Origin: Candidatus Harrisonbacteria bacterium
GTDB lineage: Bacteria; Patescibacteriota; Minisyncoccia; UBA6257; 1-14-0-10-40-38
NCBI GenBank assembly: GCA_023245035.1
Contig: JAHFLD010000004.1
Location: forward strand, 13,496 to 77,495
Direction of reading: 5' to 3'
DNA length: 64,000 nucleotides
Shown here: positions 13,819-57,840 of the stretch, piece after piece
Layout of the letters: each line of letters opens with the position of its first letter
Position numbering within the stretch: the first letter of the stretch is position 1
Program-made: the position numbers and the translations under genes
The notes under the pieces: model-generated
Told to the model about the DNA's origin: nothing
What the model saw: the letters and a program-made list of their open reading frames with translations, nothing else
The model's database searches: none

Positions 13819-13851
13819 ATGGTTACGAATATACGAATTAGACTGATGTTG

Positions 13852-15105
13852 CTATTTTTTAACGAAAACGCGGAGCAGGGTTTTGGTAACCGTAATCGCG
13901 CTGAACATGCTAACTAAGACGCCAAGCAACATGGCCAGGGCAAATCCTTTAATAAAACCGGTGGTGAAGTAGTAAAGAATAACCGAGGTGATGATGGTCG
14001 TGATATTGGAGTCGCGAATTGACGGCCAGGCGCGTTTAAAGCCCTCGCCGATAGAGGTCACACGATCCAATCCCCGATTCCGCTCCTCTCGACTTCGCTC
14101 GAAAATCAAGATGTTGGCATCAACCGCCATGCCGATAGACAAGACAATGCCGGCGATTCCGGCCAAGGTCATAGTGATGCCGAAGACCTTGAAAACAAAC
14201 AAGCTGAAGGCGATGTAGATCACGAGCGCGAGGGCGGCGTACCAGCCGAGAGTTCGATAGTAGACCACCATAAAAAGCATCACGAGCAGGGTGCCGATGA
14301 TGCCGGCAAAAATAATCCGATTGAGCGAATCAATGCCAAGACTGGCGCCAATAGTTTGCTGGCTGACCAAGTTAATCGGGGCCGGCAAGGCGCCGGCGTT
14401 GAATCTGGAGACAAGCTCCCGAGCTTCTTTGATGGTGAAGCGTCCGGTAATCTGCGCTCGGCCGCCGGTGATTTTTTGTTGAACTACCGGAGCGGTGATG
14501 AGCGTGTTATCCAAAAAAACGGCAATCGGACGGCCAACATTTTTTCCGGTAAGTGTTTCAAAAATTTGGGCTCCTTCTTTATCAAATTCAAGCGTGACTT
14601 GCGGTTCGCCGGTCACATTGCTCAAAGCCAGCTGGGCCCCGCGAACATAACGTCCGGTAAGCTGGGTTGGAATAAAACGCGGTTCGGCGCTTGGCGTCGT
14701 GGTGCCAACGGTGGAGGTGGCGACTTGTTCCACTTCGGCAAAAAGCAAAAAGGGCGTGCTGCCGATCTCCTTAATCGCGTCGCCGACGTTTTTGATTCCG
14801 GCGAGCTCAACGATTAAGCGATAACTACCGCCCTCTTTGGCGGTGACGACTTGCGGCTCGCTGACGCCATAGAGGTTGACCCGGCGTTCAATAACGCTGC
14901 GCAAGCCCGTAAGTACCGAGTCGCGATCGTTAGCGGCGACCGAACGCATATCAATTTCGTAAACCAGATGCGCGCCGCCTACGAGGTCCAAACCGAGGCG
15001 CCAGGGCAAGAGGCGCGCGCCAAATCCACGCGGCAAGACGAACAGGATCGCGAGTATGGCGGCGGCAAGGACGGCAATTAGCAAACCGATTGGTTTCTTA
15101 GTCAT
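13852..15105 (-). CDS. secD: Protein translocase subunit SecD
   Basis: LGLDLVGGAHLVYEIDM and a SecD periplasmic domain. The ORF-track start at 15252 adds a non-protein-like R/H/S-rich extension, so the start is probably MTKKPIGLL at 15105. Confidence 0.85.
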   Translation of the reverse strand: MTKKPIGLLIAVLAAAILAILFVLPRGFGARLLPWRLGLDLVGGAHLVYEIDMRSVAANDRDSVLTGLRSVIERRVNLYGVSEPQVVTAKEGGSYRLIVELAGIKNVGDAIKEIGSTPFLLFAEVEQVATSTVGTTTPSAEPRFIPTQLTGRYVRGAQLALSNVTGEPQVTLEFDKEGAQIFETLTGKNVGRPIAVFLDNTLITAPVVQQKITGGRAQITGRFTIKEARELVSRFNAGALPAPINLVSQQTIGASLGIDSLNRIIFAGIIGTLLVMLFMVVYYRTLGWYAALALVIYIAFSLFVFKVFGITMTLAGIAGIVLSIGMAVDANILIFERSREERNRGLDRVTSIGEGFKRAWPSIRDSNITTIITSVILYYFTTGFIKGFALAMLLGVLVSMFSAITVTKTLLRVFVKK

Positions 15106-15194
15106 GGCAATTTTCGGATTTTCTTCTGACACCCACTTTAGCGGGCTTTGATTAGCTTGGCAACACTTGTGGGTTGCCGATTCCGGATGTATGA

Positions 15195-15368
15195 TATTCG
15201 GGTGACTCCGAGAGCGCTCCCTGTCATCCAATCGGTGAGCCTTGTTGGGCAAGGCTTCGCCGGGGTCCCCTTGGAAGACATGAAGGTTTAAGAGAGTGAC
15301 GAAGGTCTAGCGGCATAGGTGCATCCAGACTTTCTTCAACCCCGACGCGCTCTCGGGGTCTTTTTTTA
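15195..15368. ncRNA. Candidate structured RNA element (an independent + strand sRNA or a secD leader)
   Basis: 5' segment CCGAGAGCGC pairs with 3' segment GCGCTCTCGG to close a ~170-nt domain. This is followed by a T-run on the + strand. No ORF covers the region. Confidence 0.25.
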
Positions 15369-15445
15369 TGAACTACGAACCCGCCTTCGCTCTACGAGCT
15401 ACGGGCGGGCAAGTATACGAATGGGGTAAAAGATACGGATTACGA
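15355..15445. repeat. Dispersed intergenic repeat, copy A (AACTACGAACCCGCCTTCGCT ... TACGGGCGGGCAAGTATACGAATGGGTA)
   Basis: Shares a 24-nt head with the copy at 42399 and CGGGCGGGCAAGT/TATACGAATGGGTA blocks with the copy at 57660-57840. It begins right after a hairpin plus T-run. Confidence 0.6.
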
Positions 15446-15563
15446 GGTACTGCCAGCTCATCGCCCGCGCCTCGAACTGCCTGCCCGAACGATTACGTTC
15501 AGTCGGGCGGGCATCCGAAGCCTTATGTCCCATCCGATACAATTGTCTAAAAATATTTTTTCT

Positions 15564-16085
15564 TTATTTGCAATCAACAACCGAGCGAGTTGTTTCAAAG
15601 ACGATTTTTTGGTCAGTCTTGGGAATCTTGATGAGAACGTAGGGCGTGGTCAGAACTTGTTCGGTAACGCAATTCGGACCAGGGGAATTTTCGCTGATAT
15701 GCACTGTGAGCGATTTTCCAGGCTGGCGCAGACCGCTTAGATACGCGCCAAAGCCGTAACCGCCATTTGGTTTTTGGCCGGCAAAAACGGCAACAACACT
15801 TTCCTTGGTAAAATCAATCGCTGGCATATAGTCGCCAACAAAAACATGCGGGGCTATTTCGGAAAAGACCCTTAGCCACTCGGCTTCGGTGGTGATGACC
15901 AGATTTTTGGCCTCACCAACACCGGAACGCGGACCTTGCCGGATCATCTGACCCTCCTCGGTTCCCGGCGGAAGTCCGGGGTAAATCGGGGCTTTGGTGA
16001 TCTTGGTTTTGAGGAGCCAAAAAAGACCCCCAACCACAACGAGGAAAATAACCAGCAATAGAGCCTTGTTCCGCGGTGTATTCAT
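15564..16085 (-). CDS. Hypothetical secreted/membrane-anchored protein (possible PrcB_C-like domain)
   Basis: N-terminal signal/TM (ALLLVIFLVVVGGLFWLL). The VAVFAGQKPNGGYGFGAY segment is reminiscent of the PrcB C-terminal domain. This is a weak call. Confidence 0.4.
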   Translation of the reverse strand: MNTPRNKALLLVIFLVVVGGLFWLLKTKITKAPIYPGLPPGTEEGQMIRQGPRSGVGEAKNLVITTEAEWLRVFSEIAPHVFVGDYMPAIDFTKESVVAVFAGQKPNGGYGFGAYLSGLRQPGKSLTVHISENSPGPNCVTEQVLTTPYVLIKIPKTDQKIVFETTRSVVDCK

Positions 16086-19474: not shown

Positions 19475-19546
19475 GCTTTTACGAATTTACAAATTATTAC
19501 GAAAATACGAATAGAATGCTTGATAAAGAAATTCTGATCTGGCGCT

Positions 19547-20476: not shown

Positions 20477-20750
20477 GTGATTACGAATTTACTAAGGTTA
20501 CGAATTTACGGATTATTACGAATGTACGAATAAATACAAAGATCCAAATGAAATACCACTAGGAATTCTGATGCTTTTTCAATTATAGCATTTTTGTCGT
20601 GATGTCGGTTTTTTTGTCGGTAAATCAAAGAATATTGAGTCTCCAAAAAAACCCACGAATTTAGATCCATGGCCCTCATCGGGGCACCCTTCGATCCCCA
20701 TCAGCTTACAAGGCTGGTGGGGATTTTTTATTCGCTCAAACAAAACGGTT

Positions 20751-26374: not shown

Positions 26375-26475
26375 ACTAGATACAATACTTCTATTCCGGG
26401 ATAGCCCCGCCTACGCCAAGAGCTTTGGCGGGCAGGTCAGCGATATATTCAACCGCTATCCCGAAATAGAAACAT

Positions 26476-26547
26476 TCCGGGATAGCTCAGCGGTAGAGCG
26501 GCGCGCTGTTAACGCGAAGGTCGCAGGTTCGATCCCTGCTCCCGGAG
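26476..26547 (+). tRNA. tRNA-Asn (anticodon GTT)
   Basis: Hand-folded: acceptor TCCGGGA/TCCCGGA, D-arm GCTC..GAGC, anticodon loop CTGTTAA, T-arm GCAGG-TTCGATC-CCTGC, discriminator G. Confidence 0.85.
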
Positions 26548-28014
26548 CCCGATTGGTTGATTAGCGAAAGTGAGGATCGTACTAAATGGTTCTCGTAGCG
26601 TAAACACTGGCTTTCTGCCGTTTACGATTGAGTTCTGAAGTAGATAGTTGAGAAACTTTCGTTTTTCGGGAACTTCCGAACCTTTAAATATTTCGAGCGC
26701 GTTCTTGGCGAGATTTAGCACAGTAGAAGCGGTATTGTAATAGTTTTCATCGGCTTGGGTATGTTCTTCAAGGTGCAGGTTAATTTCGTACTGTCGTTCT
26801 TTTAGTTCTTTAAACTTCTTGTCATAGTCGTCCTTAGTAATACTACTGTCGAGCAGTAAGTCCATAAGCCGATCTATTTTGACCTGTACTAGGTTGTATT
26901 CCTTCTGAAAGCTATCTACTGCGTTTTCGTGATACGAGGTTTTAGATTCGTTGCTACGCCGCAAACCGGTTACTACTTCATCTATCTTCTCCTGTGGCAT
27001 GGCCTTAAATGCCCCTAGGATGTCGTAGATTGGCTTCAAGAGCTCTCTTTCGGGTATGTATAGCTTTTCTTTGCACAAGTCTTTTTTGGCGTTCGTACAA
27101 CTGTAGTAAATATATTTCCCTTTAGCGGTTTCCGGACTCATAGCGCACCCGCATTTACCACAGCGAAGCAGTCCTCTAAAAATATGAGGCTTGGCCGCAT
27201 ATTGGAACGGCTTCTTGCCCCAACCCTTCCTAATCTCTTGGCACCGATCAAAAAGCTCTTTAGTAATGAGGGGCTGATATTTATGAGGATACAGCTTGCC
27301 CTTGCACCTCATAATGCCGTAATAGAATGGGTTACTTAAAATAAAATTAACCATGCTGAAAGCTAACGGCTTCCCCGTCTTACTTTTCAAACCATCTTTA
27401 GCTATGGCAATCCTTACTGTTTTGCCTGAATGATTTCCCGTGGCGTATAGCTCAAACATTTTGCGGATTAAATGCGCTGTATTTGGATCGGGAATTATAT
27501 CTTTCCTTAATCGCTTCTCGGCGTCCAAAGCGATGTTCTGATAGCCCATCGGCGCTTTGCCCGTCCATTCTCCGTTTCTTCGCTTCTGCTCAAACTTTCT
27601 TTTAACATTATCGCTCAACTGGAGGACATAACTTCTTGCAAACATAACAGCCATATCCCAACGGAGCAATTCCGAACTGTTTGAGTTTTGGCCTAAAACT
27701 AAATTTTCACGATAGAAATGAATTTCGAGCTTGCCAACTTTCCTAAGCTCATCTAACAGCACCGATTCTTTAAAGCTTCTTTGGAGCCGGTCAACAGTAT
27801 CAACCACGAGAGCGATCGGCTCCTTGGAGTCTTTTATGACTTCAACTACTTCTTGAAAGCGCTCTCTGTCGCCGGTAGTCGAGGATTCTTCAATTTCGTA
27901 TGTTTTCCAAACTGAAAGCCCTTTGAATTTCACATAATCAGAAACACGGACTACCTGCGCTTCATTTGAGTCCTGTTTTTTGTCTGATACACGGGCTAAG
28001 ATGATGGCTTTCAT
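26509..28014 (-). CDS. Large serine recombinase (resolvase N-domain, recombinase domain, zinc ribbon)
   Basis: N-terminus MKAIILARVSDKKQ carries the catalytic Ser. A CGKCGCAMSPE...YYSCTN zinc ribbon follows. The 3' end overlaps the tRNA-Asn antisense. Confidence 0.85.
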   Translation of the reverse strand: MKAIILARVSDKKQDSNEAQVVRVSDYVKFKGLSVWKTYEIEESSTTGDRERFQEVVEVIKDSKEPIALVVDTVDRLQRSFKESVLLDELRKVGKLEIHFYRENLVLGQNSNSSELLRWDMAVMFARSYVLQLSDNVKRKFEQKRRNGEWTGKAPMGYQNIALDAEKRLRKDIIPDPNTAHLIRKMFELYATGNHSGKTVRIAIAKDGLKSKTGKPLAFSMVNFILSNPFYYGIMRCKGKLYPHKYQPLITKELFDRCQEIRKGWGKKPFQYAAKPHIFRGLLRCGKCGCAMSPETAKGKYIYYSCTNAKKDLCKEKLYIPERELLKPIYDILGAFKAMPQEKIDEVVTGLRRSNESKTSYHENAVDSFQKEYNLVQVKIDRLMDLLLDSSITKDDYDKKFKELKERQYEINLHLEEHTQADENYYNTASTVLNLAKNALEIFKGSEVPEKRKFLNYLLQNSIVNGRKPVFTLREPFSTILTFANQPIGLREQGSNLRPSR

Positions 28015-28017
28015 AAT

Positions 28018-31000
28018 TTATTCGGAGAACTTACCGCCAGAAATGTCGAAAAATCTCTCAAAGAAGCTCGTCAGTTTACTTAGAACACTTTCACGTTTTT
28101 TGGTACGCTCACCGGTGGGAGAAAATCGAGATACGGCCGGTAAAACCTTAGTGATTGCTGTACCCGTCGTTGCCAAATTACCGTCACGAAACGCATTTCG
28201 TACAAACCTATACGTTGCGTCGTGATCAAGATTTTCGCTCACAATAATTTGTTCGAGTTCTTCAACCTTTTTCCCTTCAACAAACTTCTGCCAGTCGTCA
28301 TCAACCACGGAGTGTATATCAAGCGAAGAGATAAACTGGTTAATGAGGTCTTTCTTGTTGCGTAGCTCAACACTTGAGTCTATTGCTTTGTTAATATCAA
28401 CTAAAATCTCACGATTTTTTGTGTGGTCTTCGTGGTATTTTTTAATGAGCCCTAGTACGTAGTCGATATTTATCTCTACCTGTTTAATAAGCTCCATCTC
28501 AAACACCAAGTCATCGTTGATATTCTCTTTAGCATCCTCAACTCCCTTGCGAAATTCGTTATAAAGATCAATATATGCACTGTGATAATCTTGAATATCT
28601 CGATCCGATAAAATCTCATTTCCAATAAACTCGTCAAAGGTCGTCAGGATATTACGCACGCGCAAAATTCCGCCATAGAGCTTAATGAAGTCTTTTTGGT
28701 TTTGCTCACCTATAATTCTTTCCCCGACGGGGAACTTTTCCAAAAGCTCCGCGACGAGGCTTGCATAGCCACGTATTTGCTTCTCGCCATCTTTATAGCC
28801 GTGATAATACTCAGCATATGATTTGAGTAGAACGATGCCACTCGCTTCCTTATCACCAAAGAGCGCTATGGACTCATTGGTCGCTTTTTCTAGGTTGCGG
28901 AAACAAACAATGTTACCGAAAGTTTTTACGCTGTTTAAAATACGATTCGTACGCGAAAATGCTTGTAGAAGTCCGTGCAATCTTAGATTTTTGTCTACCC
29001 ATAGCGTATTGAGTGTTGTTGCATCAAAACCAGTCAAAAACATATTGACCACGATAAGAATATCGATCTCACGATCTTTTGCGCGCTGACTGACATCTTT
29101 ATAGTAATTTTGAAATTTATCAGATGACGTATCGTAGGATGTGCCAAACATCGCATTGTAATCAGCAATAGCTCCATCCAAAAAATCTCTTGAACTCACA
29201 TCGAGTCCAGTCGTATCCTCTGAGTTTTCATCTATCATTCCATCCGCATCCTCGTCGTTCACTCCAAAGCTATAAATTGTTGCTACTTTGAGTCGCTTAT
29301 CACTTGGTACGTCCGCAAGTTGTTTTTTGAACTCTGCATAATACTTCTTTGCAACATCAATAGATGAAACTGCAAAAATTGAGTTAAAGCCAGCGAGTCT
29401 CCGATCTTTCAACTTATAAAAACTATTGCGCTTGGTCTTTTGATCAAAATGCTCCCGAATGTAGCCAACAATATTTGCCAATCGTTCAGGTGCGGCAAGC
29501 ACTGCCTCACGATCAATATCGCTCACTTTCTTATCTTCAATATTCTCAGCTTCGCGGACGGTAGAAATATAATCAACCTTAAACGGTAAAACATTTTTAT
29601 CAGCGATTGCGTCCACGATAGTGTACGTGTGCAATTTTTCGCCAAAGGCTTGCTCGGTAGTCTTCAAATCGAGTCGCCCACCAGAAGACGCATTCATCGC
29701 AAAAATCGGCGTGCCGGTAAAGCCAAAGAGATGATAGCTTTTAAATGTCTTGGTAATAGCGGCGTGCATGTCGCCGAACTGTGAGCGGTGACATTCGTCA
29801 AAGATAAGCACGACGTGGCCATCAAAAATCGTATGCCCAGAATTTCGTCCAATAAAACGATCGAGTTTCTGAATAGTTGTGATGATGATACGTGCGTTCG
29901 GATTCTCTAGCTGACGCTTCAAAATCGCCGTACTAACATTGCTATTGGCCGCACCTTTTTCAAACTTGTCATATTCTCGCATCGTCTGGTAGTCCAGGTC
30001 TTTACGGTCAACAATAAAAACCACCTTATCTACATACGGCAATTTGCTCACCAGCTGTGCCGTCTTGAAGCTGGTCAAAGTTTTTCCTGATCCTGTCGTG
30101 TGCCAAATATACCCGCCAGCCTCTACCGTGCCGAGCTTTTTGTAGTTTGTACTTACTTCGATGCGACTCAGTATTCGCTCTGTTGCTACTATCTGATACG
30201 GTCGCATCACCAAGAGCTGTTTGTCGGTAGTAAACACGCAATAACGGGTCAAAATATTCAAAAGTGTGTGCTTCGCAAAAAAAGTCTTGGCAAAGTCCGT
30301 TAAGTCTGTAATGGGTCGGTTGGTAGAATCTGCCCACCAACTCGTAAACTCAAAACTATTACTCGCCCGTTTACCTTTTTTCGCTGTACCGGTACTGACT
30401 TCTTTTATGTGCTCTTTACGTGTCGTATTGCTGTAATACTTTGTGTGTGTGCCGTTTGAAATAATAAACAGTTGCACATATTCAAAAAGTCCTGCTGAAG
30501 CAAAGAAGCTTTCCCGCTGATAACGATTGATCTGATTGAAAGCTTCTTGAATAGCAACCCCGCGACGTTTAAGCTCTACATGCACCAACGGCAGGCCGTT
30601 TACTAGCACCGTCACATCATAGCGGTTGGCACGCTTTCCCTCATCCGTCGCGTATTGGTTGATAACCTGCAGACTGTTATCGTGAATATTGTCCTTTTTG
30701 AGGAGGTAGACATTTTTTACCGTACCGTCCTCGCGCGTCAGGTTCTTGATGTGGTCTTCTTGAATGGTTGCTGTCTTTTCTTCAACGCTTTGATTCGGGT
30801 TAGCAATCTCACTTGCAAAGAAATGCTCCCATTCCGTATCGGTGAATGTAAAACCATTAAGCTTCTCTAATTGCAGACGGAGGTTCAATGTCAAATCAGC
30901 CTCAGAGGTGATAGGTAGATACTCATACGCTTGCTTTGTAAGTTGTTCTATAAATACCTTCTCTAAATTCGCTTCACTTTGATACTGTGTGACACGCTGA

Positions 31001-31077
31001 ATATTTGGCGTGTATTGTGCCACTACGGTGCTTTGTGGATTTTCCGCGACGAGATTGTATTTATTGTTACTTGGCAT
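28018..31077 (-). CDS. hsdR: Type I restriction enzyme R subunit
   Basis: 1019 aa with the helicase motif TGSGKT, DEAH-like motif FDECHRS, and a nuclease region near the N-terminus. Confidence 0.9.
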   Translation of the reverse strand: MPSNNKYNLVAENPQSTVVAQYTPNIQRVTQYQSEANLEKVFIEQLTKQAYEYLPITSEADLTLNLRLQLEKLNGFTFTDTEWEHFFASEIANPNQSVEEKTATIQEDHIKNLTREDGTVKNVYLLKKDNIHDNSLQVINQYATDEGKRANRYDVTVLVNGLPLVHVELKRRGVAIQEAFNQINRYQRESFFASAGLFEYVQLFIISNGTHTKYYSNTTRKEHIKEVSTGTAKKGKRASNSFEFTSWWADSTNRPITDLTDFAKTFFAKHTLLNILTRYCVFTTDKQLLVMRPYQIVATERILSRIEVSTNYKKLGTVEAGGYIWHTTGSGKTLTSFKTAQLVSKLPYVDKVVFIVDRKDLDYQTMREYDKFEKGAANSNVSTAILKRQLENPNARIIITTIQKLDRFIGRNSGHTIFDGHVVLIFDECHRSQFGDMHAAITKTFKSYHLFGFTGTPIFAMNASSGGRLDLKTTEQAFGEKLHTYTIVDAIADKNVLPFKVDYISTVREAENIEDKKVSDIDREAVLAAPERLANIVGYIREHFDQKTKRNSFYKLKDRRLAGFNSIFAVSSIDVAKKYYAEFKKQLADVPSDKRLKVATIYSFGVNDEDADGMIDENSEDTTGLDVSSRDFLDGAIADYNAMFGTSYDTSSDKFQNYYKDVSQRAKDREIDILIVVNMFLTGFDATTLNTLWVDKNLRLHGLLQAFSRTNRILNSVKTFGNIVCFRNLEKATNESIALFGDKEASGIVLLKSYAEYYHGYKDGEKQIRGYASLVAELLEKFPVGERIIGEQNQKDFIKLYGGILRVRNILTTFDEFIGNEILSDRDIQDYHSAYIDLYNEFRKGVEDAKENINDDLVFEMELIKQVEINIDYVLGLIKKYHEDHTKNREILVDINKAIDSSVELRNKKDLINQFISSLDIHSVVDDDWQKFVEGKKVEELEQIIVSENLDHDATYRFVRNAFRDGNLATTGTAITKVLPAVSRFSPTGERTKKRESVLSKLTSFFERFFDISGGKFSE

Positions 31078-32284
31078 ATTCGTTGAAAGCTAAAAGTTTA
31101 CCCCGATAGTATTCATACTGTGATCTACGAGCAGAGAGTTCTGCTGGCAAACCTATCGAAATATCACTTACAAGCGCATTGAACTTATCCAAAATCGTCA
31201 CTATACGCTCTTGTTCTGCGAGGGGTGGAATTGAGACCTCCACATTTGCCATGACATTACTCATAAGTTTGGGATTGCCCATTCCAGCACTGACATATTT
31301 TTTAGCAACAGTTGCCAGTATGTACGCAAGAAATTTTGTATTTACATCTTCAACTTTGACTTTCAAAAGCCCGCAAACATTTGTAAGACTAAACTTTCCG
31401 TTACGATAGAAAATAGAACCGGCGTTTGCCCCGTCAGTTGTCCAAGTCACATACTCACCGTCATAATCGTAAGTACTGATGTATCCAAAGACACCATCAT
31501 CTGTTGTTTGCGATGAGTAGACTGGGTATTCGCCTCTATTTGTTTTTAGATAATCTTTTGACATAACTCTACCTCGGTTAATTTGACATATCTCCGATAT
31601 CGTGGCGCGTCTTACTCTCTCTCTCTCGGTTCCTTCCTTAAATGTCAGAAGTTGTGAGCGATAATGCTCGTACTGCTTCTTTCTCGCTTCTAGCTCCGCT
31701 TCTAGCTCCGCTTCTAGCTCCGTAAAACTATTAAGAGTTTTGATAATATTTTCTTGTACTGCAAGTGGTGGTAGGGGTATTTTAATTTTTGCAAAACGCT
31801 TTTTTGAGACATTAAATCTCGTCACTCCACTGGCAGTTTTTGCAATCTGTTTTCTCATCTGTTCATCCCTAAACAAATATTTAGAGAACTCGGGCAACAA
31901 CAAGTTATTGTCATTCAGGCGAAAGCCAAAACAAAAACTATTTAAATACAACGGCTCACTAATTTTCTTTGTTAAAACAGAGGACATCCCACACTCGTCT
32001 GGCGTTTCTGATGAGCCTGTAAATAACACATCACCATATTCGATCCTGTTTTGATTTTCGTCTTTGCCTACTTTTACAAAGACATCGATATCGGTATTGA
32101 CCGCGATGTTAGAGTATATATTCATGTAGGTAACAAATTTTGCGTTACCATTGCTAAAATCATCTTTGCTTTTGCCTGACAGCCCACCATAAAACTCGCC
32201 TAGTTCTCCCAACTCCTTAAACTCAACCCCATTGGGGCAGAGCTTAGCAATCAGTTTTTCAATTTTGCTCATATGTTTAATCAT
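31067..32284 (-). CDS. hsdS: Type I restriction-modification specificity subunit
   Basis: Two target-recognition domains separated by a central (ELEA)3 coiled-coil spacer. It overlaps hsdM and hsdR by a few nt, in operon fashion. Confidence 0.85.
   Translation of the reverse strand: MIKHMSKIEKLIAKLCPNGVEFKELGELGEFYGGLSGKSKDDFSNGNAKFVTYMNIYSNIAVNTDIDVFVKVGKDENQNRIEYGDVLFTGSSETPDECGMSSVLTKKISEPLYLNSFCFGFRLNDNNLLLPEFSKYLFRDEQMRKQIAKTASGVTRFNVSKKRFAKIKIPLPPLAVQENIIKTLNSFTELEAELEAELEARKKQYEHYRSQLLTFKEGTERERVRRATISEICQINRGRVMSKDYLKTNRGEYPVYSSQTTDDGVFGYISTYDYDGEYVTWTTDGANAGSIFYRNGKFSLTNVCGLLKVKVEDVNTKFLAYILATVAKKYVSAGMGNPKLMSNVMANVEVSIPPLAEQERIVTILDKFNALVSDISIGLPAELSARRSQYEYYRGKLLAFNEYAK
31686..31721. 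repeat. Perfect 12-bp x3 tandem repeat (CTTCTAGCTCCG) in the hsdS central conserved region
   Basis: Encodes ELEAELEAELEA in-frame on the minus strand. Confidence 0.9.
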
Positions 32285-33867
32285 TTTGTTCCTTCAATAT
32301 CGCTAACGATCTCGTCAATCGAGGTGCGGAGTTCCTGTTGCCGTGCCACGATGCCCGCTATTCTCGTGTTCAGCTCCGTAATGTCTACCACCTCGCGAGT
32401 GTCTTCCGCCATAACATAGCTTGAAACGGCAATATTGTAGTCATTTTCGGCAACGGCTTTATTGTCCACGAGTTTGGCAAAATACTTGGCATCTTTGCGA
32501 GTACTGAATGCTTCCAAAATCTTGGAGCGATTCGTCTCGCTCAATTTATTTTTGTTGCCACCACGAGTAAATTCGACAGAGGCGTCGATAAAAAGTGTTT
32601 TGTTATCTTTCTTGCTCTTTTTAAGCACAATGATACAAGTGGCTATGGTAGTACCAAAAAAGAGATCAGGCGGTAGCTGGATAACTGTATCAACGTAGTT
32701 GTTGTCTATCAGATACTTGCGAATTTTCTGCTCTGCACCACCACGATAGAGGACGCCCGGAAATTCAACGATTGCGGCAGTGCCACTGGTAGAAAGCCAG
32801 CTGAGCATGTGCATAGTAAAAGCTAGGTCAGCTTTACTCTTTGGAGCGAGTACTCCCGCAGGAGAGAAGCGTGGATCATTGATGAGGAGAGGGTTAGCAT
32901 CGCCCTCCCAGTGGATGGAATATGGCGGGTTGGAGACGATAGCGTCAAACGGTTCATCGTCCCAATGCTTTGGATCGGTGAGCGTATCGCCGTGAGCAAT
33001 ATCAAAATTGTTGTAGTTTATATCGTGCAAGAACATGTTGATACGACATAAGTTGTAGGTGGTCAGGTTAATTTCCTGTCCGAAAAAACCTAGACGAACA
33101 TTTTCTTTGCCGAGCACTTTGGCGAATTTAAGGAGTAGTGAGCCAGAACCGCAGGCTGGATCATAGACCTTATTTACTTCTTTCTTGCCGACTGTGGTAA
33201 TTTCGGCCAAAAGTTCACTGACTTCCTGTGGAGTGTAGAACTCGCCTCCAGACTTACCAGCGTTTGAGGCGTACATAGTCATGAGGAACTCATACGCATC
33301 GCCGAAAGCGTCTATTGTATTGTCGGAGTAGTTGCCAAGGCGAAGGTCGCCAATAGATTCAAATAGTTTTGCGAGTTTTTGATTTCGTTTTTCTACCGTA
33401 CTTCCTAGTTTATTGGAGTTGACATCAAGGTCATCAAACAAGCCCTTGATATCATCTTCACTGTTCGCACCTTTTGCAGAATTTTCAATATTACGAAAGA
33501 CTGCTGTAAGGGTTTCGTTGAGATTAGCGTCATTGCGAGCATTTTTCCTGACATTCACAAAAAGCTCACTTGGCAAAATGTAAAAACCTTTTTCTTTGAC
33601 GGTATCAGCTCGACCGAACTCAGCTTCTTTGTTGGAAAGTGTAGCGTAATCAAAATCTTTTTTAGCCGCGCGGCGTTCATCAGCATTTATATAGTTGGTC
33701 AAATTTTCACTGATGAAGCGATAAAAGAGTATACCGAGTACATACTGCTTGAAGTCCCAACCATCTACGCTTCCACGTAAATCATTAGCAATCTGCCAAA
33801 TAGCACGATGCAGCTCGGCACGCTCCTGCTCTTTGGTTGTATTTAGATGTGCTTCTTTGTTTGGCAT
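32281..33867 (-). CDS. hsdM: Type I R-M N6-adenine DNA methyltransferase subunit
   Basis: NPPY motif (VSNPPYSIHW) and an AdoMet motif FYTPQEV...DPACGSGS. Confidence 0.9.
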   Translation of the reverse strand: MPNKEAHLNTTKEQERAELHRAIWQIANDLRGSVDGWDFKQYVLGILFYRFISENLTNYINADERRAAKKDFDYATLSNKEAEFGRADTVKEKGFYILPSELFVNVRKNARNDANLNETLTAVFRNIENSAKGANSEDDIKGLFDDLDVNSNKLGSTVEKRNQKLAKLFESIGDLRLGNYSDNTIDAFGDAYEFLMTMYASNAGKSGGEFYTPQEVSELLAEITTVGKKEVNKVYDPACGSGSLLLKFAKVLGKENVRLGFFGQEINLTTYNLCRINMFLHDINYNNFDIAHGDTLTDPKHWDDEPFDAIVSNPPYSIHWEGDANPLLINDPRFSPAGVLAPKSKADLAFTMHMLSWLSTSGTAAIVEFPGVLYRGGAEQKIRKYLIDNNYVDTVIQLPPDLFFGTTIATCIIVLKKSKKDNKTLFIDASVEFTRGGNKNKLSETNRSKILEAFSTRKDAKYFAKLVDNKAVAENDYNIAVSSYVMAEDTREVVDITELNTRIAGIVARQQELRTSIDEIVSDIEGTK

Positions 33868-33869
33868 AA

Positions 33870-34052
33870 CTATTTTGTTCTTACTTTGCTCATAAACCGC
33901 TCAAACTCGGATCGCTTGATGCGAAACTCTTTGCCTATCTTATGGGCAACTAATTTACCCGCACCTATATAGCGGTAAATTGTCATCACATTTACTTTAA
34001 GCTTCCCGGCTAATTCCTTTGCTGTATAAAATTCATCTTTCATAGTTAGCAT
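33870..34052 (-). CDS. Excisionase/AlpA-family HTH DNA-binding protein
   Basis: 60 aa with the HTH YTAKELAGKLKVNVMTIYRYIGAGKLVAHKIG. Confidence 0.6.
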   Translation of the reverse strand: MLTMKDEFYTAKELAGKLKVNVMTIYRYIGAGKLVAHKIGKEFRIKRSEFERFMSKVRTK

Positions 34053-34057
34053 AGTTA

Positions 34058-36755: not shown

Positions 36756-36906
36756 TATTCTTTACTTTAGTTTACATTCCATGATTATTCAATTGGTAAT
36801 GTGGGCTATTTTAAAAGCCTTGAATCGTTACAGGTAATGAGGTTGACTTTGATGTTACTAACAGGCTACCATGTCAATCCGAAGCAGTAAGAATTATAAT
36901 AGGCAT

Positions 36907-37302: not shown

Positions 37303-37585
37303 TGTGGCGATACCAACAAAAATAGACTTCGGAGATTTCTTTAAAGCAGTTCGCCTTATTTCAGTTAAAAAAGGATTCACCTGCAAACCTTATAATGGCA
37401 GTAAGGGTTCTGCTATATGCTTTAACTTCTTTAGAGCAGGAGAAGAAGAACCATTTGGCGTTTTTTGTGTGCACGAAGACAAGCATAGAAAAGTCATATA
37501 TTCCGATGATCTCAAGAAAGCCTGTAAGCAATTAGGGGTGACTAAGGAAGAATTTGAAGTTTTCATTAAAAATGGCTTTAAGTAG
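37286..37585 (+). CDS. HicA/YcfA-like putative toxin
   Basis: G-F-x...GSKGS...H...K-x-I...LKKACKQLGVTKEEF pattern resembles HicA family mRNA interferases. It overlaps the upstream HicB-like gene by 17 nt. Confidence 0.4.
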   Translation: MLLQNNVAIPTKIDFGDFFKAVRLISVKKGFTCKPYNGSKGSAICFNFFRAGEEEPFGVFCVHEDKHRKVIYSDDLKKACKQLGVTKEEFEVFIKNGFK

Positions 37586-37664
37586 AAAAAGAAACGAGGT
37601 TTAAATAGCTAAGTTCCGTTCTTATTTGTCTCCAATTCAGGGTTCTAAACCTATCCAACCACGG

Positions 37665-37691
37665 GAGCCAAGTTGGATGATTATCGAAGGT
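37665..37691. repeat. Putative attR. Imperfect direct repeat of tRNA-Asn 3' end and downstream sequence (26544-26570).
   Basis: GGAGCCAAGTTGGATGATTATCGAAGG against GGAGCCCGATTGGTTGATTAGCGAAAG, 20/27 identical. Confidence 0.4.
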
Positions 37692-37788
37692 AAAAATACT
37701 ACAGGTTGTGCTGTAGTATAATATTTTTATGCGCTAGTGCTTTGGCGGATGGGTTATAAATTAAAATGTGTCATAATTATGGGAGAGC

Positions 37789-38088
37789 ATGTTCAAGGAA
37801 TTCGCTAAATTTTTAAAAGAGTTCAATATTGTTTCTTTGGCGGTGGGTTTTGTGATGGGTACGGCCTCAACCTCGCTCGTGAGTTCTATGGTTAAAGACG
37901 TGCTCATGCCCATTGCCGCGCCACTTTTGGGCGCGGAAGCGTGGAGAGAGGCCGTTTGGCATATTGGTCCCGTGACTATTGCTATTGGCTCGTTTGCGGC
38001 CGAGCTTTTTAATTTTCTGATCTTAGCTTTGATTGTTTTTGTTATTGTCAAAAAAATTATCAAGACGGAGACGGTAAAAAAATATTAA
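37789..38088 (+). CDS. mscL: Large-conductance mechanosensitive channel MscL
   Basis: LKEFNIVSLAVGFVMGTA...VKDVLMPI conserved TM1 and loop region. Confidence 0.85.
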   Translation: MFKEFAKFLKEFNIVSLAVGFVMGTASTSLVSSMVKDVLMPIAAPLLGAEAWREAVWHIGPVTIAIGSFAAELFNFLILALIVFVIVKKIIKTETVKKY

Positions 38089-41986: not shown

Positions 41987-42355
41987 ATGCCGATCGATTG
42001 TCCGGAGCTAAGTCAAAAGGCCCGAGCCATTTTTGAGAAACTGAAGCCACATTTCCCGCCAGATCCGTGGGGTAGTCCGAAATGGTTCGAGGATGGCAGA
42101 GTTTTCCGAGACCTCGGCGAACGAGTATTTGATCTGCGTAAGTCGGCCGACAGGAAGAAGATGATGGAGGAGCTGTTCCATACTTTGGGGTACATGTTGA
42201 CTATCGCGGTTGGTGTCTTCAGGGATCATCATGGGAAGTCCGCCAACTTAGAGGGCTTCCGACTGACGCCGATGTTGCTAAACAAGCTAGAACTTTATGA
42301 CTTGCTGACTGAGCTTGAGTATCAGATTGAGATCGCGCCTATCGTGGATGCGTAA
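41987..42355 (+). CDS. Hypothetical protein
   Basis: 122 aa. It is followed by an extended hairpin plus T7 terminator at 42358-42398. Confidence 0.5.
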   Translation: MPIDCPELSQKARAIFEKLKPHFPPDPWGSPKWFEDGRVFRDLGERVFDLRKSADRKKMMEELFHTLGYMLTIAVGVFRDHHGKSANLEGFRLTPMLLNKLELYDLLTELEYQIEIAPIVDA

Positions 42356-42394: not shown

Positions 42395-42460
42395 TTTTTT
42401 TATTAACTACGAACCCGCCTTCGCTTTGCGAGTTACTGGTGAGCGAGTTATGATATTGGG
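42395..42460. repeat. Dispersed intergenic repeat, copy B (ATTAACTACGAACCCGCCTTCGCTTTGCGAG...)
   Basis: Its 24-nt head is identical to copy A at 15362. It starts immediately after a terminator. Confidence 0.6.
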
Positions 42461-42462: not shown

Positions 42463-44400
42463 ATGGAAAATCCCGATTTTTTGAAGCAAAAATACGCCCT
42501 ACAAAATAGTCCCGAGGTGGAATCCGCCGCCAAGCGCACCGAGGCGCAGAGTGGTGAAAAAGTTCCACAGAAGCCCGAGGATAGAATTCAAAACTATCTG
42601 GATCGCTTTACGGAGATTCTGGATCGCGAGGATCCGGAAAAGCGGGAACGGGGCGTGGAAGCATTGAAGCAGATTTTGCACGACAAGTTTGTGATTAAGC
42701 CCGAGGAAGTTCCGGAGAGTTATTTTGAAACGCAACGCCGGATCGCGCGGGAGCGAGGGCAGGGCGAGATTGAAGTTACCGACGAGATGCGTAGACAGCA
42801 CACCGAAGTTATCATTGCCGATCAGGAGAGTACGCTAGATAATTGGATTGATTACCTTTCCTCACCGGACGCGCTGTATCCCGACTGGCTCAAGTATTGG
42901 GCAGTGCGGAGTATTCTCGGCTTAGGCGGATACGATAAGGAGAAAAAGCAATTTACCAAGCGGGACAAGGGAACAGTCAAACCATTCCCCGATCTGAACC
43001 GGGAGGCCTTGGCCTACGTGTTGGACGTGATAGAGAAAAAGCACAAGGGAGAAAAACCAAATCTCACCGCATTTGAAGCCGAGGACAAGCCTAAATTTGA
43101 GCAACTGCTCGCTGGAGAGAATTTTGGCAAGCTCTATGCCTGGGCGATTGAAAAGGTAACGCCGGATTCGGTGGATCGGCTAACGATCACCGAGGGTAAG
43201 TGGGTCAAATATGAAAAAGAATCGGATCACATGCCGCTCGTGGAATCGCTCCAAAGTCATGGCACCGGCTGGTGTACGGCGGGAGAATCCACTGCCGAGG
43301 CCCAACTTAAAAAGGGCGATTTTTATGTCTATTATTCGCTTAATCAAAATGGCGAGGCAAAGATTCCCCGGGTCGCGATTAGGATGGAGGATCAAGGCAT
43401 CGCCGAGGTTCGTGGAATCGCGCCCGAACAAAACCTGGACCCTTATATTGCTTCGGTGGCGCAGGAAAAACTTAAAGAATTTCCGGACGGGGAGAAATAT
43501 GAGAAGAAGGTTCGGGATATGAAACTTTTGACGGAGATTGATAACCGCGTAAAACGCGGGGATGAGTTAACTAAGGACGATCTGATTTTTCTGTATGAAA
43601 TCAAGGAGCCGATTGAGGGGTTTGGGTATCAGAAGGATCCAAGGGTTGAGGAGTTAAGGGAAGCAAGAAAGCTTAGATTCAAGGATGATTTGGTTATAAT
43701 TTTTGGATGTAAGCCAGAACGAGTGGCCTTAGCACCAAACGAAATTAAAGAAGATACTCTAGTGTATGTTGGGAAATTAGAACCAGGTATTTTTAACCGA
43801 TTACCCGTCAACATTGAACACATTTATGCTGAATTTCCCAGGGAAATACATAGGGAAAAAGTTGAAATTATCAAAAGAGAAAAACCGTCCATTCTATCAG
43901 ATAAATTAAAATTACGGCTGACAGCTGCTGATATTGGGATGACAGAAAGCGCGGCTGCAATAATAGACGATCCTTATTTTGTATTTGACGATGCCGAATC
44001 TTCAGTTTATAAGGATATTAGGGTTACTACTCTAATCCGCCTAACGGCGGCTGACCTAGGGCTGAAGCCTCAGATAATAAGCAGTAGAAGCGGTGTTGCC
44101 TTTGATCAAGTCTATGAGCGGGCAAAAGAACTCGGTTTGGAATTATGCCCCGGTGAAGTCATCCCTTATTATTGCATTGAATATCGAAGCAAACTTCCTA
44201 CCGTGGATATAAGAGTTGGAATGAAGTTCGAACACACGAGCCATTATGGCTTTCCTTCTGCTTTATCTTTCGAAATTTTAAACGAAAAAGACTCTGGAAT
44301 GCTTTTGAGTACGTATTCGCCAGATAATACCCAAAGTGAATACTCCACCTTTTTATTCCGTCTGCCGAATCGCGCCCCAAGCACTCCCCCGCCCGGTTAA
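42463..44400 (+). CDS. Hypothetical 645-aa protein with internal LRLTAADIGM / IRLTAADLGL repeats
   Basis: Long ORF. The C-terminal third (from ~43680) is markedly lower in GC than the N-terminal part. Confidence 0.55.
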   Translation: MENPDFLKQKYALQNSPEVESAAKRTEAQSGEKVPQKPEDRIQNYLDRFTEILDREDPEKRERGVEALKQILHDKFVIKPEEVPESYFETQRRIARERGQGEIEVTDEMRRQHTEVIIADQESTLDNWIDYLSSPDALYPDWLKYWAVRSILGLGGYDKEKKQFTKRDKGTVKPFPDLNREALAYVLDVIEKKHKGEKPNLTAFEAEDKPKFEQLLAGENFGKLYAWAIEKVTPDSVDRLTITEGKWVKYEKESDHMPLVESLQSHGTGWCTAGESTAEAQLKKGDFYVYYSLNQNGEAKIPRVAIRMEDQGIAEVRGIAPEQNLDPYIASVAQEKLKEFPDGEKYEKKVRDMKLLTEIDNRVKRGDELTKDDLIFLYEIKEPIEGFGYQKDPRVEELREARKLRFKDDLVIIFGCKPERVALAPNEIKEDTLVYVGKLEPGIFNRLPVNIEHIYAEFPREIHREKVEIIKREKPSILSDKLKLRLTAADIGMTESAAAIIDDPYFVFDDAESSVYKDIRVTTLIRLTAADLGLKPQIISSRSGVAFDQVYERAKELGLELCPGEVIPYYCIEYRSKLPTVDIRVGMKFEHTSHYGFPSALSFEILNEKDSGMLLSTYSPDNTQSEYSTFLFRLPNRAPSTPPPG

Positions 44401-49355: not shown

Positions 49356-49356
49356 T

Positions 49357-53049: not shown

Positions 53050-53785
53050 TTGTTCGTTGACAACTTCACCCCCCACTTCACCCTCTACCGGAGAACCAAT
53101 GGCCATGTAGTTTTCTAAAATTATTTTGGTCATGAACCATGATCGCCTGGCTTCCGAACACTTCGTTCGGGAGCGGATCTGAACCACCTGCCGTGGAGCA
53201 AGGATTTAGTACGGTGACTTGAAGAGCGCCTAAGAGGCTGGCGCTATGACAGAAATCAGTCCTCTCGTCGCGCGTCATTGGATGGCGCTTGGCGATGGCG
53301 ATTTCGACATCACGAGAACCAACGCAAAGACAGAGAAGGGAAAACGCGATGCCGACGCAGATAAGAGCGCCCGAGGGGCTGGCGCTATAACATAAATTAG
53401 TCTCCCGCCACGCACCAGGCAAGGCTTGGTGATTGGCGGTGGCGTCGCTTACTGATCGATCCTGGCGGTGTAGATGCAAATACGGCGAGAGAGGGTTATG
53501 CGATACCAGCGATGAGCGCCCAGGGAGTTGGCGCTAACACAAGTAAACATCCTTGGTTTAGAATCACCATAAACGATTCTTGGGGATAGACCTCTTGGAA
53601 TCCGTCTTGTCCGCTCCGGCGGACCCGAAGATGGATATTTCATCCAAGCCGTCTGGGCACCTCATTAGAATCACAAGGAACAATCAAACGCTGTTTTTTG
53701 ACCTCACGACTTTGACTTCTTTGGGATTCATGCTCCTAGCACCTTCAGCCCGTGTCGTTTAACCGCGACACGGGCTATTTTTTTT
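53050..53785 (+). ncRNA. Candidate large non-coding RNA (~740 nt) with internal ~145-nt imperfect tandem repeats
   Basis: No credible ORF on either strand. It has a promoter at 53016 and a perfect terminator hairpin GCCCGTGTCG/CGACACGGGC plus T9 at 53748-53785. Three hairpins AGCGCC-N9-GGCGCT lie at 53225, 53366 and 53515. Confidence 0.3.
53748..53785 (+). terminator. Intrinsic terminator
   Basis: 10-bp perfect stem, 7-nt loop, T9. Confidence 0.7.
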
Positions 53786-54836: not shown

Positions 54837-54921
54837 TTATTTTTTTTGCTACTTTAGCAAACAATAGCACTTTATGTCTGACTTTGCACCATACACAGCC
54901 TCCGGATTTTTTTGAGGTAAA

Positions 54922-56235: not shown

Positions 56236-56307
56236 GCCGGGGATTTTTAATTTTGCGGGGACTTATCCACATGTATATATGTTATATGTTTGCTAGACTC
56301 TAGGTAT

Positions 56308-56994
56308 ATGAAAAAACACTCAACTGTTTCACTGACCCCAAAACAACAGCGTTTCTACGAAACTCTGCGGTCGCACATCGCTCGCCGTCGTGAGTCGCCA
56401 ACCGTGGCGGAGCTTCAAAAATCAATGAAGCTCTCTTCGCCGCGCGCCGTCAGCCAATATTTGGAGTCTTTGGAAAAAAAGGGCTTGATAAAACGAAGTC
56501 GTTATGCCACGCGCGGAATTTCTTTAGTTAGTTCCGCGGTTAAGTCCGGGGTTCAGATGATTACCATTCCACTCATCGCCTCGGCGGGATGCGACAATGT
56601 GAGCGTCTTGGCGCAAAGAACTTTTGATGAGTACATCTGCGTTTCCAGCGACTTGCTTCAAGGGCGAAAAAAACAAAGAGTGGTAAGTATTAAGGCCATT
56701 GGTGAATCAATGAACGAGGCGGGAGTTAATGACGGCGATTATGTTTTGGTGGAGGTGACGGACGCGGCAAGCGAAGACGATCTGGTGGTGGCGATTATTG
56801 ACGGCTTCGCGGTCATAAAAAAATTGGAATACGCCAACAACGCGGTAATCTTGAAGCCGGTTTCGAGCGATCCGGTCTACAAGCCAATCATCATGCGGCG
56901 AGATTTTACGATTTTTGGAAGAGTGCTGGACATTATCCGGCGCCCGCAACATGGCGAGTTAGAAATCGTGCCCTTGGTTTCGGGCGGGTATTAG
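56308..56994 (+). CDS. lexA: LexA repressor (S24 peptidase)
   Basis: N-terminal wHTH (LTPKQQRFYETLRSHIARRRESPTVAELQKSM), an Ala-Gly cleavage site in IASAGCD, and a Ser/Lys dyad (GESM ... K). Confidence 0.8.
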   Translation: MKKHSTVSLTPKQQRFYETLRSHIARRRESPTVAELQKSMKLSSPRAVSQYLESLEKKGLIKRSRYATRGISLVSSAVKSGVQMITIPLIASAGCDNVSVLAQRTFDEYICVSSDLLQGRKKQRVVSIKAIGESMNEAGVNDGDYVLVEVTDAASEDDLVVAIIDGFAVIKKLEYANNAVILKPVSSDPVYKPIIMRRDFTIFGRVLDIIRRPQHGELEIVPLVSGGY

Positions 56995-57146
56995 ATTCAC
57001 CGATTTTATAGGATTTTTGAGTGCTATTGACTTTTTGGGAGAAATATATATAATGACTCGTGTTCGGTTTAGGCTTGTGCCTAGCCGATTCTAGCTTCTT
57101 TGAAAATTCCATCCCCGCCTTGGAGCGGAAAAAAGGAAAGCAGACC

Positions 57147-57614
57147 ATGCTTGGTAGCTTTTTTGGTCGCTACGGCCACTTCTTTGGAGCCGCGGCGTTA
57201 CTGGCAGCACTGTCCATTCCCTTCGTGAAGATCTGCAACTCCGAGCCGCCCGCGACGAAGTCGCCTCCGGTTCAGCAGACTGACGTCGGAATCACGAACG
57301 TCAAGATCGCCATGCTCGAGACGGAGGTTAAGCGCCTCAACTCCGAGATTCTGGAACTCAAAGAAGACCGCAACCAAATCTATATCCGGTTCAACAAGGA
57401 GTTCGACAGGGTTGAGGCGGATGTCACGGAGATCCGCTTACAGATCGTGAAGAACAATGATGAGACCAAGCGGGGTCTCGACGACATGGGCAAGAACCTC
57501 ACGGCGCGAGTTGAGCGTGTTTTCACGCTCGCCGAACAGGTGAATCAGATGCTCCGCGAATTCATCAGAACCAGCACATCAAAGCCAACCGAGAGTCGCC
57601 CCGAGAAGAAGTGA
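57147..57614 (+). CDS. Hypothetical coiled-coil protein with high-GC3 codon usage
   Basis: An AAAAAGGAAAG RBS lies upstream. It has an N-terminal hydrophobic segment and a heptad-rich body. Codon usage (aag/gag/ctc/atc/gtc) differs from that of neighbouring genes. Confidence 0.5.
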   Translation: MLGSFFGRYGHFFGAAALLAALSIPFVKICNSEPPATKSPPVQQTDVGITNVKIAMLETEVKRLNSEILELKEDRNQIYIRFNKEFDRVEADVTEIRLQIVKNNDETKRGLDDMGKNLTARVERVFTLAEQVNQMLREFIRTSTSKPTESRPEKK

Positions 57615-57659
57615 CAGCGCCCATCGCACGCCCCCGACTTGTCTGCCTCTGGCAGATTG

Positions 57660-57840
57660 CGTCGGGGGCATTTTTTTACGGACTACGAATTTACGAATTA
57701 GTACGAATATACGAATAACTAAAACAGAGGCTGAGGGTTAAATACGGGCGGGCAAGTTTACTAGTACTACGAATTTACGAATTAGTACCCGCCCGTACCG
57801 GACGGTACGTTCGGGCGGGCGAATATACGAATGGGTATCT
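57660..57840. repeat. Dispersed intergenic repeat, long copy C (six TACGAAT heptamers plus CGGGCGGGCAAGT / TATACGAATGGGTA blocks with internal inverted repeats)
   Basis: It starts right after the hairpin GCCCCCGAC...GTCGGGGGC plus T7. It shares blocks with copies A and B. Confidence 0.6.

Follow-up and report, generated by a model that had tools for sequence, protein, structure and literature searches.

Intervening sequences of bacterial 23S rRNA are known from Salmonella, Leptospira and Coxiella, where they lie in helices 25 and 45 and in some cases carry a small open reading frame (ORF) of the 23S_rRNA_IVP/S23p type. Repetitive extragenic palindromes (REPs) and bacterial interspersed mosaic elements (BIMEs) are GC-rich imperfect palindromes of 20–40 nucleotides (nt) associated with RAYT transposases, and homing-endonuclease genes and other free-standing selfish nuclease cassettes provide a further comparison. 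Direct repeats of the heptamer TAACTGA occur between genes in marine Beggiatoaceae, Cyanobacteria and some Bacteroidetes (MacGregor 2015, PMC4679880), and the heptamer repeats of Nostoc PCC 7120 are related to them (bioRxiv 10.1101/2022.06.06.494920). A translational or post-transcriptional role has been proposed for the TAACTGA repeats (PMC4679880) as well as for those of Nostoc (bioRxiv 10.1101/2022.06.06.494920). Here we describe a family of repeats built on the heptamer TACGAAT (ATTCGTA on the opposite strand) in a 64,000-nt stretch of the genome of a Candidatus Harrisonbacteria bacterium (contig JAHFLD010000004.1, positions 13,496 to 77,495), hereafter called the window and numbered from its first letter. 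The window belongs to a 92.5-kb metagenome contig (ena:ERZ27280176:k141_8511425), and the best named relatives of its DnaK, from Harrisonbacteria, Pacebacteria and Paceibacterota, agree with an origin in Patescibacteria. On balance, we regard the copies in the window as probable single arms, or relics, of an insertion element that is palindromic and resembles the intervening sequences of 23S rRNA.

The initial annotation, made from the letters of the window, had described a dispersed intergenic TACGAAT family, and the counts bear this out. The exact heptamer occurs 20 times in the window versus 7.89 ± 2.64 expected (none of 100 shuffles reached 20), and 17 of these 20 units are non-coding in a window of which 11.4% lies outside long ORFs. 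Adjacent exact units spaced 7–11 nt apart form six pairs, where 300 first-order Markov simulations averaged 0.003. With one mismatch allowed there is no enrichment (136 occurrences versus 196 expected), and it is only the exact, clustered form that is enriched. On the + strand, clusters occupy 13824–13838 (two units), 15416–15447, 19480–19512 (four units), 20482–20531 (five to six units), 57684–57716 (four units) and 57768–57782 (two units), with a single unit at 57826; the - strand of the window has no TACGAAT cluster, and no copy in the window has an inverted partner. The number of units per site ranges from two to six, and the units are separated by 0–3 nt and are not contiguous. Because the arrays are also present in independent assemblies of the organism (L002, L003 and L005), they are not assembly artefacts.

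Three of the window copies, namely the dnaJ array, the array before a membrane gene in the dnaK operon, and the initial part of a long copy, termed copy C, have in common a four-unit module with the spacing 8-10-8. The GTDB, represented by one genome per species, was scanned for three exact units with gaps of 1–3 nt, and this yielded at least 120 loci, versus an estimate of about two chance matches (596 Gb x 2 strands x 9 gap combinations / 4^21). The loci listed come mostly from Patescibacteria (more than 15 candidate phyla), with fewer from Bacteroidota and a few from Omnitrophota or from metagenome-assembled genomes labelled Gammaproteobacteria. They contain at least 113 four-unit modules of about 32 bases, TACGAAT(0-1 nt)TACGAAT-NNN-TACGAAT-R-TACGAAT, for which the gene-sense consensus is ATTCGTA-Y-ATTCGTA-NNN-ATTCGTA-ATTCGTA-R; the spacing 8-10-7 is the commonest, followed by 8-10-8. 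Among the genes flanked in other genomes are ribosomal protein genes (S3, L16, L29, L36 and S8), fusA, ychF, folD, pilB, atpH and a traG-like gene. As a control, 96 viral loci of IMG/VR with three exact units were inspected and showed uniform 8-8, 9-9 or 10-10 tandem repeats and no module; since they lacked both canonical arrays and the nuclease genes described below, a viral vehicle was rejected. The viral contigs (L226–L321) carry TACGAATGC and TACGAATGG at a 9-nt period, which look like coding repeats (Ala-Thr-Asn and Gly-Thr-Asn frames), and these 9-nt-period repeats are unrelated to the window arrays. Uniform-period TACGAAT repeats also occur in Prevotella and look unlike the module. In the literature searched we found no account of the module, inverted pairing, nuclease cargo or rRNA insertion for a TACGAAT family; nothing of relevance emerged on heptamers in Patescibacteria or on miniature elements in the candidate phyla radiation, and full-text matches to the heptamer were coincidental only, such as oligonucleotides in a paper on HU of P. 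gingivalis.

Many of the modules are halves of an inverted pair. Among the matches listed, 56 of 113 modules have an inverted partner no more than 110 nt away, and paired arrays lie almost exclusively between co-directional genes in a constant layout: a stop codon, 1–13 nt, a left arm (TACGAAT), a loop of 15–40 nt, a right arm (ATTCGTA), 3–15 nt and an ATG. Of the single arrays that face a same-strand start codon, 17 of 23 have their outer (C/G) end 3–15 nt from it; of those that face the end of an opposite-strand gene, 19 of 25 have it 1–13 nt away. The distance at the inner end is variable. The L058 locus holds three near-identical pairs of ~105 nt within its S10 ribosomal operon, for example in the rpsC-rplP spacer, in which the heptamers are conserved, the loops are moderately diverged and the NNN spacers are unrelated and non-complementary. 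Copies with the same loop are found at L018 and L104, and the copies at these three loci are signs of amplification within a genome. Since the L058 loops diverge and the NNN spacers do not complement each other, it is the heptamers and their spacing that are constrained and not a perfect hairpin. A hairpin as the selected feature was likewise rejected, the NNN spacers of the two arms being non-complementary and of unequal length, and divergent promoters were rejected as an explanation of the inverted pairs, nearly all of which lie between co-directional genes. The two contexts seen in the window, behind terminators and before start codons, would follow from the copies being the two arms of one palindromic element, and all window copies would read TACGAAT on the + strand because the right arms stand ahead of genes on the - strand and the left arms behind terminators on the + strand.

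The initial annotation had also suggested an element of the MITE (miniature inverted-repeat transposable element) type or a REP-like one. The dispersed element it envisaged stands, as part of a large family with ~100-nt inverted pairs, a nuclease gene and 23S insertions in other genomes; a REP in the strict sense is very unlikely, the units being AT-rich direct repeats. Like MITEs, the gene-less pairs are inverted-repeat elements of ~100 nt that occur in many copies in intergenic spacers beside genes and are co-transcribed with them. They differ from MITEs in that no target-site duplication was seen by eye at the junctions inspected, no transposase of the classical kind was found as a partner, an almost unchanged arm sequence recurs over many candidate phyla, and the arms are arrays of 7-mers rather than a unique inverted repeat. 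MITE-type inverted repeats are found in related genomes, in the 56 of 113 modules given above, and not among the window copies, and the candidate autonomous partner bracketed by the arms would be a gene for a GxxExxY nuclease, which is not a known transposase.

Paired arrays are also found within rRNA. At L018, the 23S rRNA gene (2078–6187) spans 4.1 kb versus 2.9 kb for the model, and two paired-array elements with long inverted-repeat stems sit in its loops at positions ~583–585 and ~1218 of the large-subunit model, that is, in helices 25 and 45, the two classical sites of 23S intervening sequences. The 23S insertions at L018 total ~1.2 kb, which exceeds the two array elements, and the record is labelled Gammaproteobacteria. 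The likeness to intervening sequences extends to both sites and to the long stems, and the two types further agree in that a small ORF is optional and in that the insertion is tolerated because the transcript need not stay continuous. They differ in that most TACGAAT copies, and all of those in the window, lie in mRNA spacers, in that the arms are repeated heptamers, and in that the cargo is a PD-(D/E)XK nuclease and not a four-helix-bundle protein.

When all ORFs at the 120 loci listed were clustered, the sole small ORF family that recurred beside arrays was GxxExxY (TIGR04256; PF13366, PDDEXK_3), a protein of ~130 amino acids (aa). A left TACGAAT array and a right ATTCGTA array bracket the gene at eight of nine array-selected loci, and under a strict criterion bracketing was seen for three of five GxxExxY genes versus 5 of 659 other ORFs (Fisher p = 1e-5). 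An independent set was gathered by finding the proteins by similarity only and then fetching their contigs, and of its seven independent loci six are clearly bracketed and one is partly so. Bracketed cassettes occupy the rpsG-fusA spacer of a Kerfeldbacterium and of a Parcubacterium (L074 has a cassette at the same site), the rpsN-rpsH spacer of a Giovannonibacterium, a site upstream of atpH, a type IV secretion cluster and a Falkowbacterium locus; bracketing is partial, with a weak left arm, at a Moisslbacterium locus. Residues E35, D74, E84 and K86 are invariant in 63 GxxExxY sequences, and the predicted structural model (predicted local distance difference test score, pLDDT, of 92) has a minimal PD-(D/E)XK nuclease fold. 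Of solved folds, those of Cas4, lambda exonuclease and MGME1 come nearest, with splicing endonucleases and Hjc after them. The heptamer differs between lineages of the GxxExxY protein: it is TACGAAA at L221 and L223, CACGGAT/ATCCGTG beside the genes of Treponema and of a Fusobacteria plasmid, and takes the form (CGCGGAT)3-loop-(ATCCGCG)3 beside the Gemmatirosa gene.

PDDEXK_3 has been listed as a family of 'unknown function' whose mixed phylogeny across phyla suggests multiple transfers (PMC3424549). That mixed phylogeny is a trait shared with homing cassettes, and like them the elements of relatives, though nothing in the window itself, place a small nuclease ORF with intact catalytic residues amid two parts of a repeated site and reside inside essential, highly expressed operons and rRNA. 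Unlike the site of a homing cassette, the 'site' here is a multi-copy heptamer array and not a unique gene sequence. Two further loci bear on cargo of another kind. At L211 (1180–1790), a 23S_rRNA_IVP gene (PF05635, four-helix-bundle) lies between inverted arrays of a different heptamer, (NNCTAAA)n to its left and (TTTAGNN)n to its right, and at L223 (3230–3345) 7-nt repeats of the ATCGTTT type are found only to the left of a gene of the 23S_rRNA_IVP type, which hints at a second, sister cassette family with heptamer arrays.

In its full form, the proposed element consists of a left arm, C-TACGAAT(0-1 nt)TACGAAT-NNN-TACGAAT-R-TACGAAT, placed 1–13 nt past a stop codon or just past a terminator, then a gene for the GxxExxY nuclease, and last a right arm, ATTCGTA-Y-ATTCGTA-NNN-ATTCGTA(0-1 nt)ATTCGTA-G, ending 3–15 nt before the next ATG. 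It occupies the spacers of co-directional housekeeping operons and the loops of 23S rRNA helices 25 and 45, places where an inverted-repeat insertion can be transcribed with no loss of a product. The architecture, the positions, the nuclease link and the 23S insertions are observed, whereas the function of the heptamers and the present state of the window copies are inferred. The heptamers would serve as binding sites for the element's own protein, probably the GxxExxY nuclease, which would recognize them and drive copying or homing between arrays. Under this proposal, the window would hold three right arms, those of the - strand genes secF, dnaJ and the membrane gene, and three left arms, the long copies A, B and C behind + strand terminators; these would now be inert or near-inert scars that affect the translation of adjoining genes incidentally, if at all. 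A broader proposal, which we put forward tentatively and rate at somewhat less than an even chance, is that GxxExxY/PDDEXK_3 proteins are the mobilizing or homing nucleases of an unrecognized class of palindromic heptamer-array elements, in which each protein lineage would recognize its own 7-mer (TACGAAT, TACGAAA, CACGGAT or CGCGGAT) and which would enter operon spacers and 23S helices 25 and 45 and leave gene-less pairs and single arms in their wake. On this broader proposal, start-codon heptamer repeats of several phyla, rRNA intervening sequences and many small repeats of Patescibacteria would have a common origin.

The TAACTGA repeats are the nearest counterpart of the arrays themselves. 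Both consist of two to six copies of a 7-nt unit that are mostly intergenic, both lie in 'forward' orientation a few nt from a start codon, ribosomal protein operons included, and in this orientation both hold stop codons (TAA and TAG in the TACGAAT family). In both cases the downstream genes have no shared function, the distribution over distant phyla is patchy and there is no known mechanism. The TACGAAT family nevertheless differs in its unit, in its non-contiguous, fixed 7/8-10-8 spacing and in its inverted pairs, GxxExxY bracketing and 23S insertion, features not reported for the TAACTGA repeats, for which just one inverted repeat was found (PMC4679880). Because the unit differs, we regard the TACGAAT arrays as an analogue and not a member of the TAACTGA type.

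The finding in the window is itself modest, and the interest lies in the family-level link. Start-codon heptamer repeats of Beggiatoaceae, Cyanobacteria and Bacteroidetes have long been known without a mechanism, and three features described here suggest one: the fixed four-unit architecture, the bracketing of a nuclease gene and the insertion at two 23S sites. If the link holds, a role could be assigned to GxxExxY/PDDEXK_3 and rRNA intervening sequences would be tied to operon-spacer repeats. The arrays are also a common sequence feature able to mislead motif-based prediction of regulons and to break assemblies of Patescibacteria.

Several observations weigh against an insertion element. All window copies are single arms, and the ~82 kb read of the window's contig, the window included, yielded no GxxExxY gene. 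No target-site duplication was seen by eye at the L206, L208, L074 and L058 junctions. Presence/absence polymorphism was not found among three assemblies of the organism, and for lack of such insertion polymorphism mobility is something we infer and have not observed. In the modules the heptamer bases are near-invariant and the spacer bases free to vary, but this invariance is inflated because the loci were picked for three exact units. A GxxExxY paralogue of another clade (L108, 7185–7640) is without arrays, and the nuclease could be a passenger and not the mobilizing enzyme. Finally, three window genes have a gap of exactly 5 nt between array and ATG, and arrays recur before dnaJ, which could mean that the position has been selected for function.

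In a close relative (DnaJ 89% and DnaK 94% identical), the array before the membrane gene is a decayed one with the spacing 8-11-7, and the array before dnaJ has ATTAGTA-type units and a longer spacer than that of the window. In a more distant relative, L128, ATTAGAA arrays (780–840) run into the ATG of dnaJ. Heptamer arrays precede dnaJ in L087, in L126/L127 (ATTAGTA type) and in L128 (ATTAGAA type); those of L126/L127 and L128 occupy the position seen in the window with another unit. Judged from the decayed and altered copies in the close relative, the turnover of arrays appears to be fast.

The positions before start codons are what a cis-acting site of post-transcriptional or translational control would explain, where the four heptamers by the ribosome-binding region would be bound by a host factor such as ribosomal protein S1, a cold-shock protein, a CsrA-like protein or a ribbon-helix-helix repressor. 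Such a site would account for right arms 5 nt from the ATG at three window genes, none of which has a Shine-Dalgarno sequence, for start codons that peak 5–10 nt past arrays in other genomes, and for arrays before dnaJ in several lineages despite differing heptamers; spacing that is fixed while the spacer bases vary freely is a common trait of sites bound by proteins, and the closest published cases favor translational roles (PMC4679880; bioRxiv 10.1101/2022.06.06.494920). It leaves aside, however, the half of single arrays that are oppositely oriented at gene ends, copy C, which lies between convergent genes, and the bracketing of one particular nuclease gene family, and control of translation is excluded for the paired arrays within 23S rRNA because no translation start exists there. 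No function unites the downstream genes, a close relative has the orthologous array in decayed form, and most genes of the organism lack a Shine-Dalgarno sequence anyway. We consider control sites of this kind unlikely, though they are the main rival, and such a role is compatible with an insertion element if a selfish element was later co-opted. A narrower regulatory reading, put forward in the initial annotation, is an operator shared by heat-shock and secretion genes, to which the adjacency of three of the six window sites to secF, dnaJ and a gene within the dnaK operon lends some appeal. Because the genes flanked elsewhere are unrelated housekeeping genes (the ribosomal protein genes, fusA, ychF, folD, pilB, atpH and the traG-like gene listed above), with modules inside rRNA as well, such a regulon is unsupported. 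In addition, grpE and dnaK are without an array, arrays lie between genes inside operons and not at promoters, half of the single arrays are at gene ends, and the consensus of CIRCE (controlling inverted repeat of chaperone expression, the HrcA heat-shock operator), TTAGCACTC-N9-GAGTGCTAA, had no matches in the window within three mismatches. We give this regulon virtually no chance, and annotation of the window repeats as a chaperone/secretion operator is unwarranted.

Two other explanations dispense with the nuclease element altogether. Replication slippage could generate simple-sequence repeats, possibly contingency loci, with no need of a dedicated element or protein; heptamers are the commonest long simple-sequence repeats in bacteria (cited in PMC4679880), and unit number does vary by site, from two to six. 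Slippage nevertheless predicts uniform periods, as in the viral and Prevotella repeats, which look quite different from the irregular but conserved 7/8-10-8 spacing with variable spacers seen over many candidate phyla, and it explains neither inverted pairing nor nuclease cargo; we rate it as highly improbable. REP/BIME-type extragenic palindromes mobilized by a RAYT (a REP-associated tyrosine transposase of the Y1, HUH type) would fit arrays that are extragenic, present in many copies and often located past gene ends or terminators, and a Y1_Tnp (IS200/RAYT-like) gene is present in the close relative mentioned above (L216, 3925–4368), in the region that replaces the window's restriction-modification island. 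That gene adjoins no array, the gene families that recur beside arrays at the at least 120 loci include no Y1 transposase, and the gene that is repeatedly bracketed is GxxExxY. As the single units and arms are also AT-rich 7-mers in direct repeat and not palindromes, we find a REP/RAYT origin very unlikely.

The three start-codon copies in the window are all on the - strand, and the initial annotation was right to place ATTCGTA clusters directly 5' of the three genes: in gene sense, the final ATTCGTA unit ends exactly 5 nt from the ATG of each, with no Shine-Dalgarno sequence in between. A two-unit right-arm remnant (13824–13838; gene sense ATTCGTAtATTCGTA) lies in the 33-nt secD-secF spacer before the secF ATG (13818), and a four-unit array with the spacing 8-10-8 (19480–19512; gene sense ATTCGTAtTTTCGTAataATTTGTAaATTCGTA) lies in a 72-nt spacer before the dnaJ ATG (19474). 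The array of five to six units at 20482–20531 precedes the gene for a 309-aa membrane protein (ATG 20476) and is composed of an 8-10-8 four-unit module (20499–20531), a degenerate unit and an exact unit at 20482–20488. The arrays before dnaJ and the membrane gene belong to repeat-finder family D1, which corresponds to the four-unit array. An extended -10 box, TGcTATAAT, is found ~100 nt upstream of the membrane gene, and because the array lies downstream of this box it is probably in the 5' untranslated region. A promoter reading of the heptamers themselves was rejected, the units being a misfit to sigma-70 hexamers at any sensible spacing. Many window genes have a TATAAT-like box 6–7 nt 5' of the ATG, for example upstream of 25346, 16085 and 23263, which suggests leaderless mRNAs.

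Copies A, B and C, on the + strand, begin 3–4 nt beyond a hairpin and T-run, as the initial annotation had stated. The terminator-like hairpin and T-run that directly precedes copy A (15339–15368, +) has no upstream + strand gene; it is antisense to the 5' region of secD and could terminate a small or antisense RNA or work bidirectionally. Copy A (15372–15447) is of a degenerate left-arm type with a CCCGCC...GGGCGGG stem, and its units are all TAC-initial (TACGAAc, TACGAGc, TACGGGc, TACGAAT, TACGGAT and TACGAGg). Its paralogue, copy B (42405–42460), is of the same type, starts with AACTACGAACCCGCCTTCGCT past the terminator of gene 41987–42355 and reaches the ATG of gene 42463–44400. Copies A and B have 54 nt in common at 85% identity, T-run included (family D5), and the identical head reported for two of the copies is real, although it measures 21 nt (AACTACGAACCCGCCTTCGCT) instead of 24. 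Kinship of this head to L074 was rejected as coincidence because the matching L074 sequence codes for the 3' end of rpsG.

Copy C begins with a complete four-unit left-arm module, CTACGAATtTACGAATtagTACGAATaTACGAAT (57682–57716, +; D1 and D14), located 4 nt past the T-run of gene 57147–57614. It continues as a partial duplication between convergent genes (57717–57835, +; D11 and D14) with two units at 57768–57782 and the terminal TACGAAT at 57826. The internal duplication (D14) measures 39 nt, and the internal inverted repeats reported for this copy were recovered as TACGGGCGGG/CCCGCCCGTA; its GC stems are TACGGGCGGG/CCCGCCCGTA and CGGGCGGG. As for the blocks said to be shared between long copies, CGGGCGGGCAAGT-TACGAATGGG is present in three copies (D11, which includes copy A), whereas ACTACGAA alone is not significant (four observed versus 1.3 expected, with 5 of 100 shuffles reaching four). 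An Rfam scan of the window at gathering thresholds returned two tRNAs and no other family, and the window is without an rRNA gene; a Leu_leader identity for copy C was rejected, its Rfam score being at chance level.

Other repeats and features of the window were noted. The mnmA-like gene (4752–5966, -) contains a direct repeat of 44–50 nt, 91% identical between 4855–4904 and 5527–5576 and in frame, which encodes K(K/T)S(R/H)HSH(F/S)KISHR(S/L)FTA twice. Its DNA holds TGCGAAA and TGCGAAT units on the + strand (gene sense ATTCGCA, with no stop codon), and by analogy with the Rickettsia palindromic elements it may be a relative of the heptamer element that was inserted in frame. A 24-nt motif, AAACTC(C/A)AGTTT(T/A)TAAGGATGTT, occurs three times (5982–6005, 6317–6340 and 43997–44020); two of the copies are just upstream of neighboring - strand genes, one for an HTH_5 protein and one for the mnmA-like enzyme, making it a possible operator. 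Three direct repeats of ~40 nt (AAGAGCGCC..GGCTGGCGCTAT...) lie 141–149 nt apart at 53222–53551, where there is no convincing ORF and Tandem Repeats Finder made no call. The region at 26475–38000 has a low GC content (38–45% versus ~49% elsewhere), adjoins tRNA-Asn, contains genes for a serine recombinase and for type I restriction-modification, and probably represents an integrated island.

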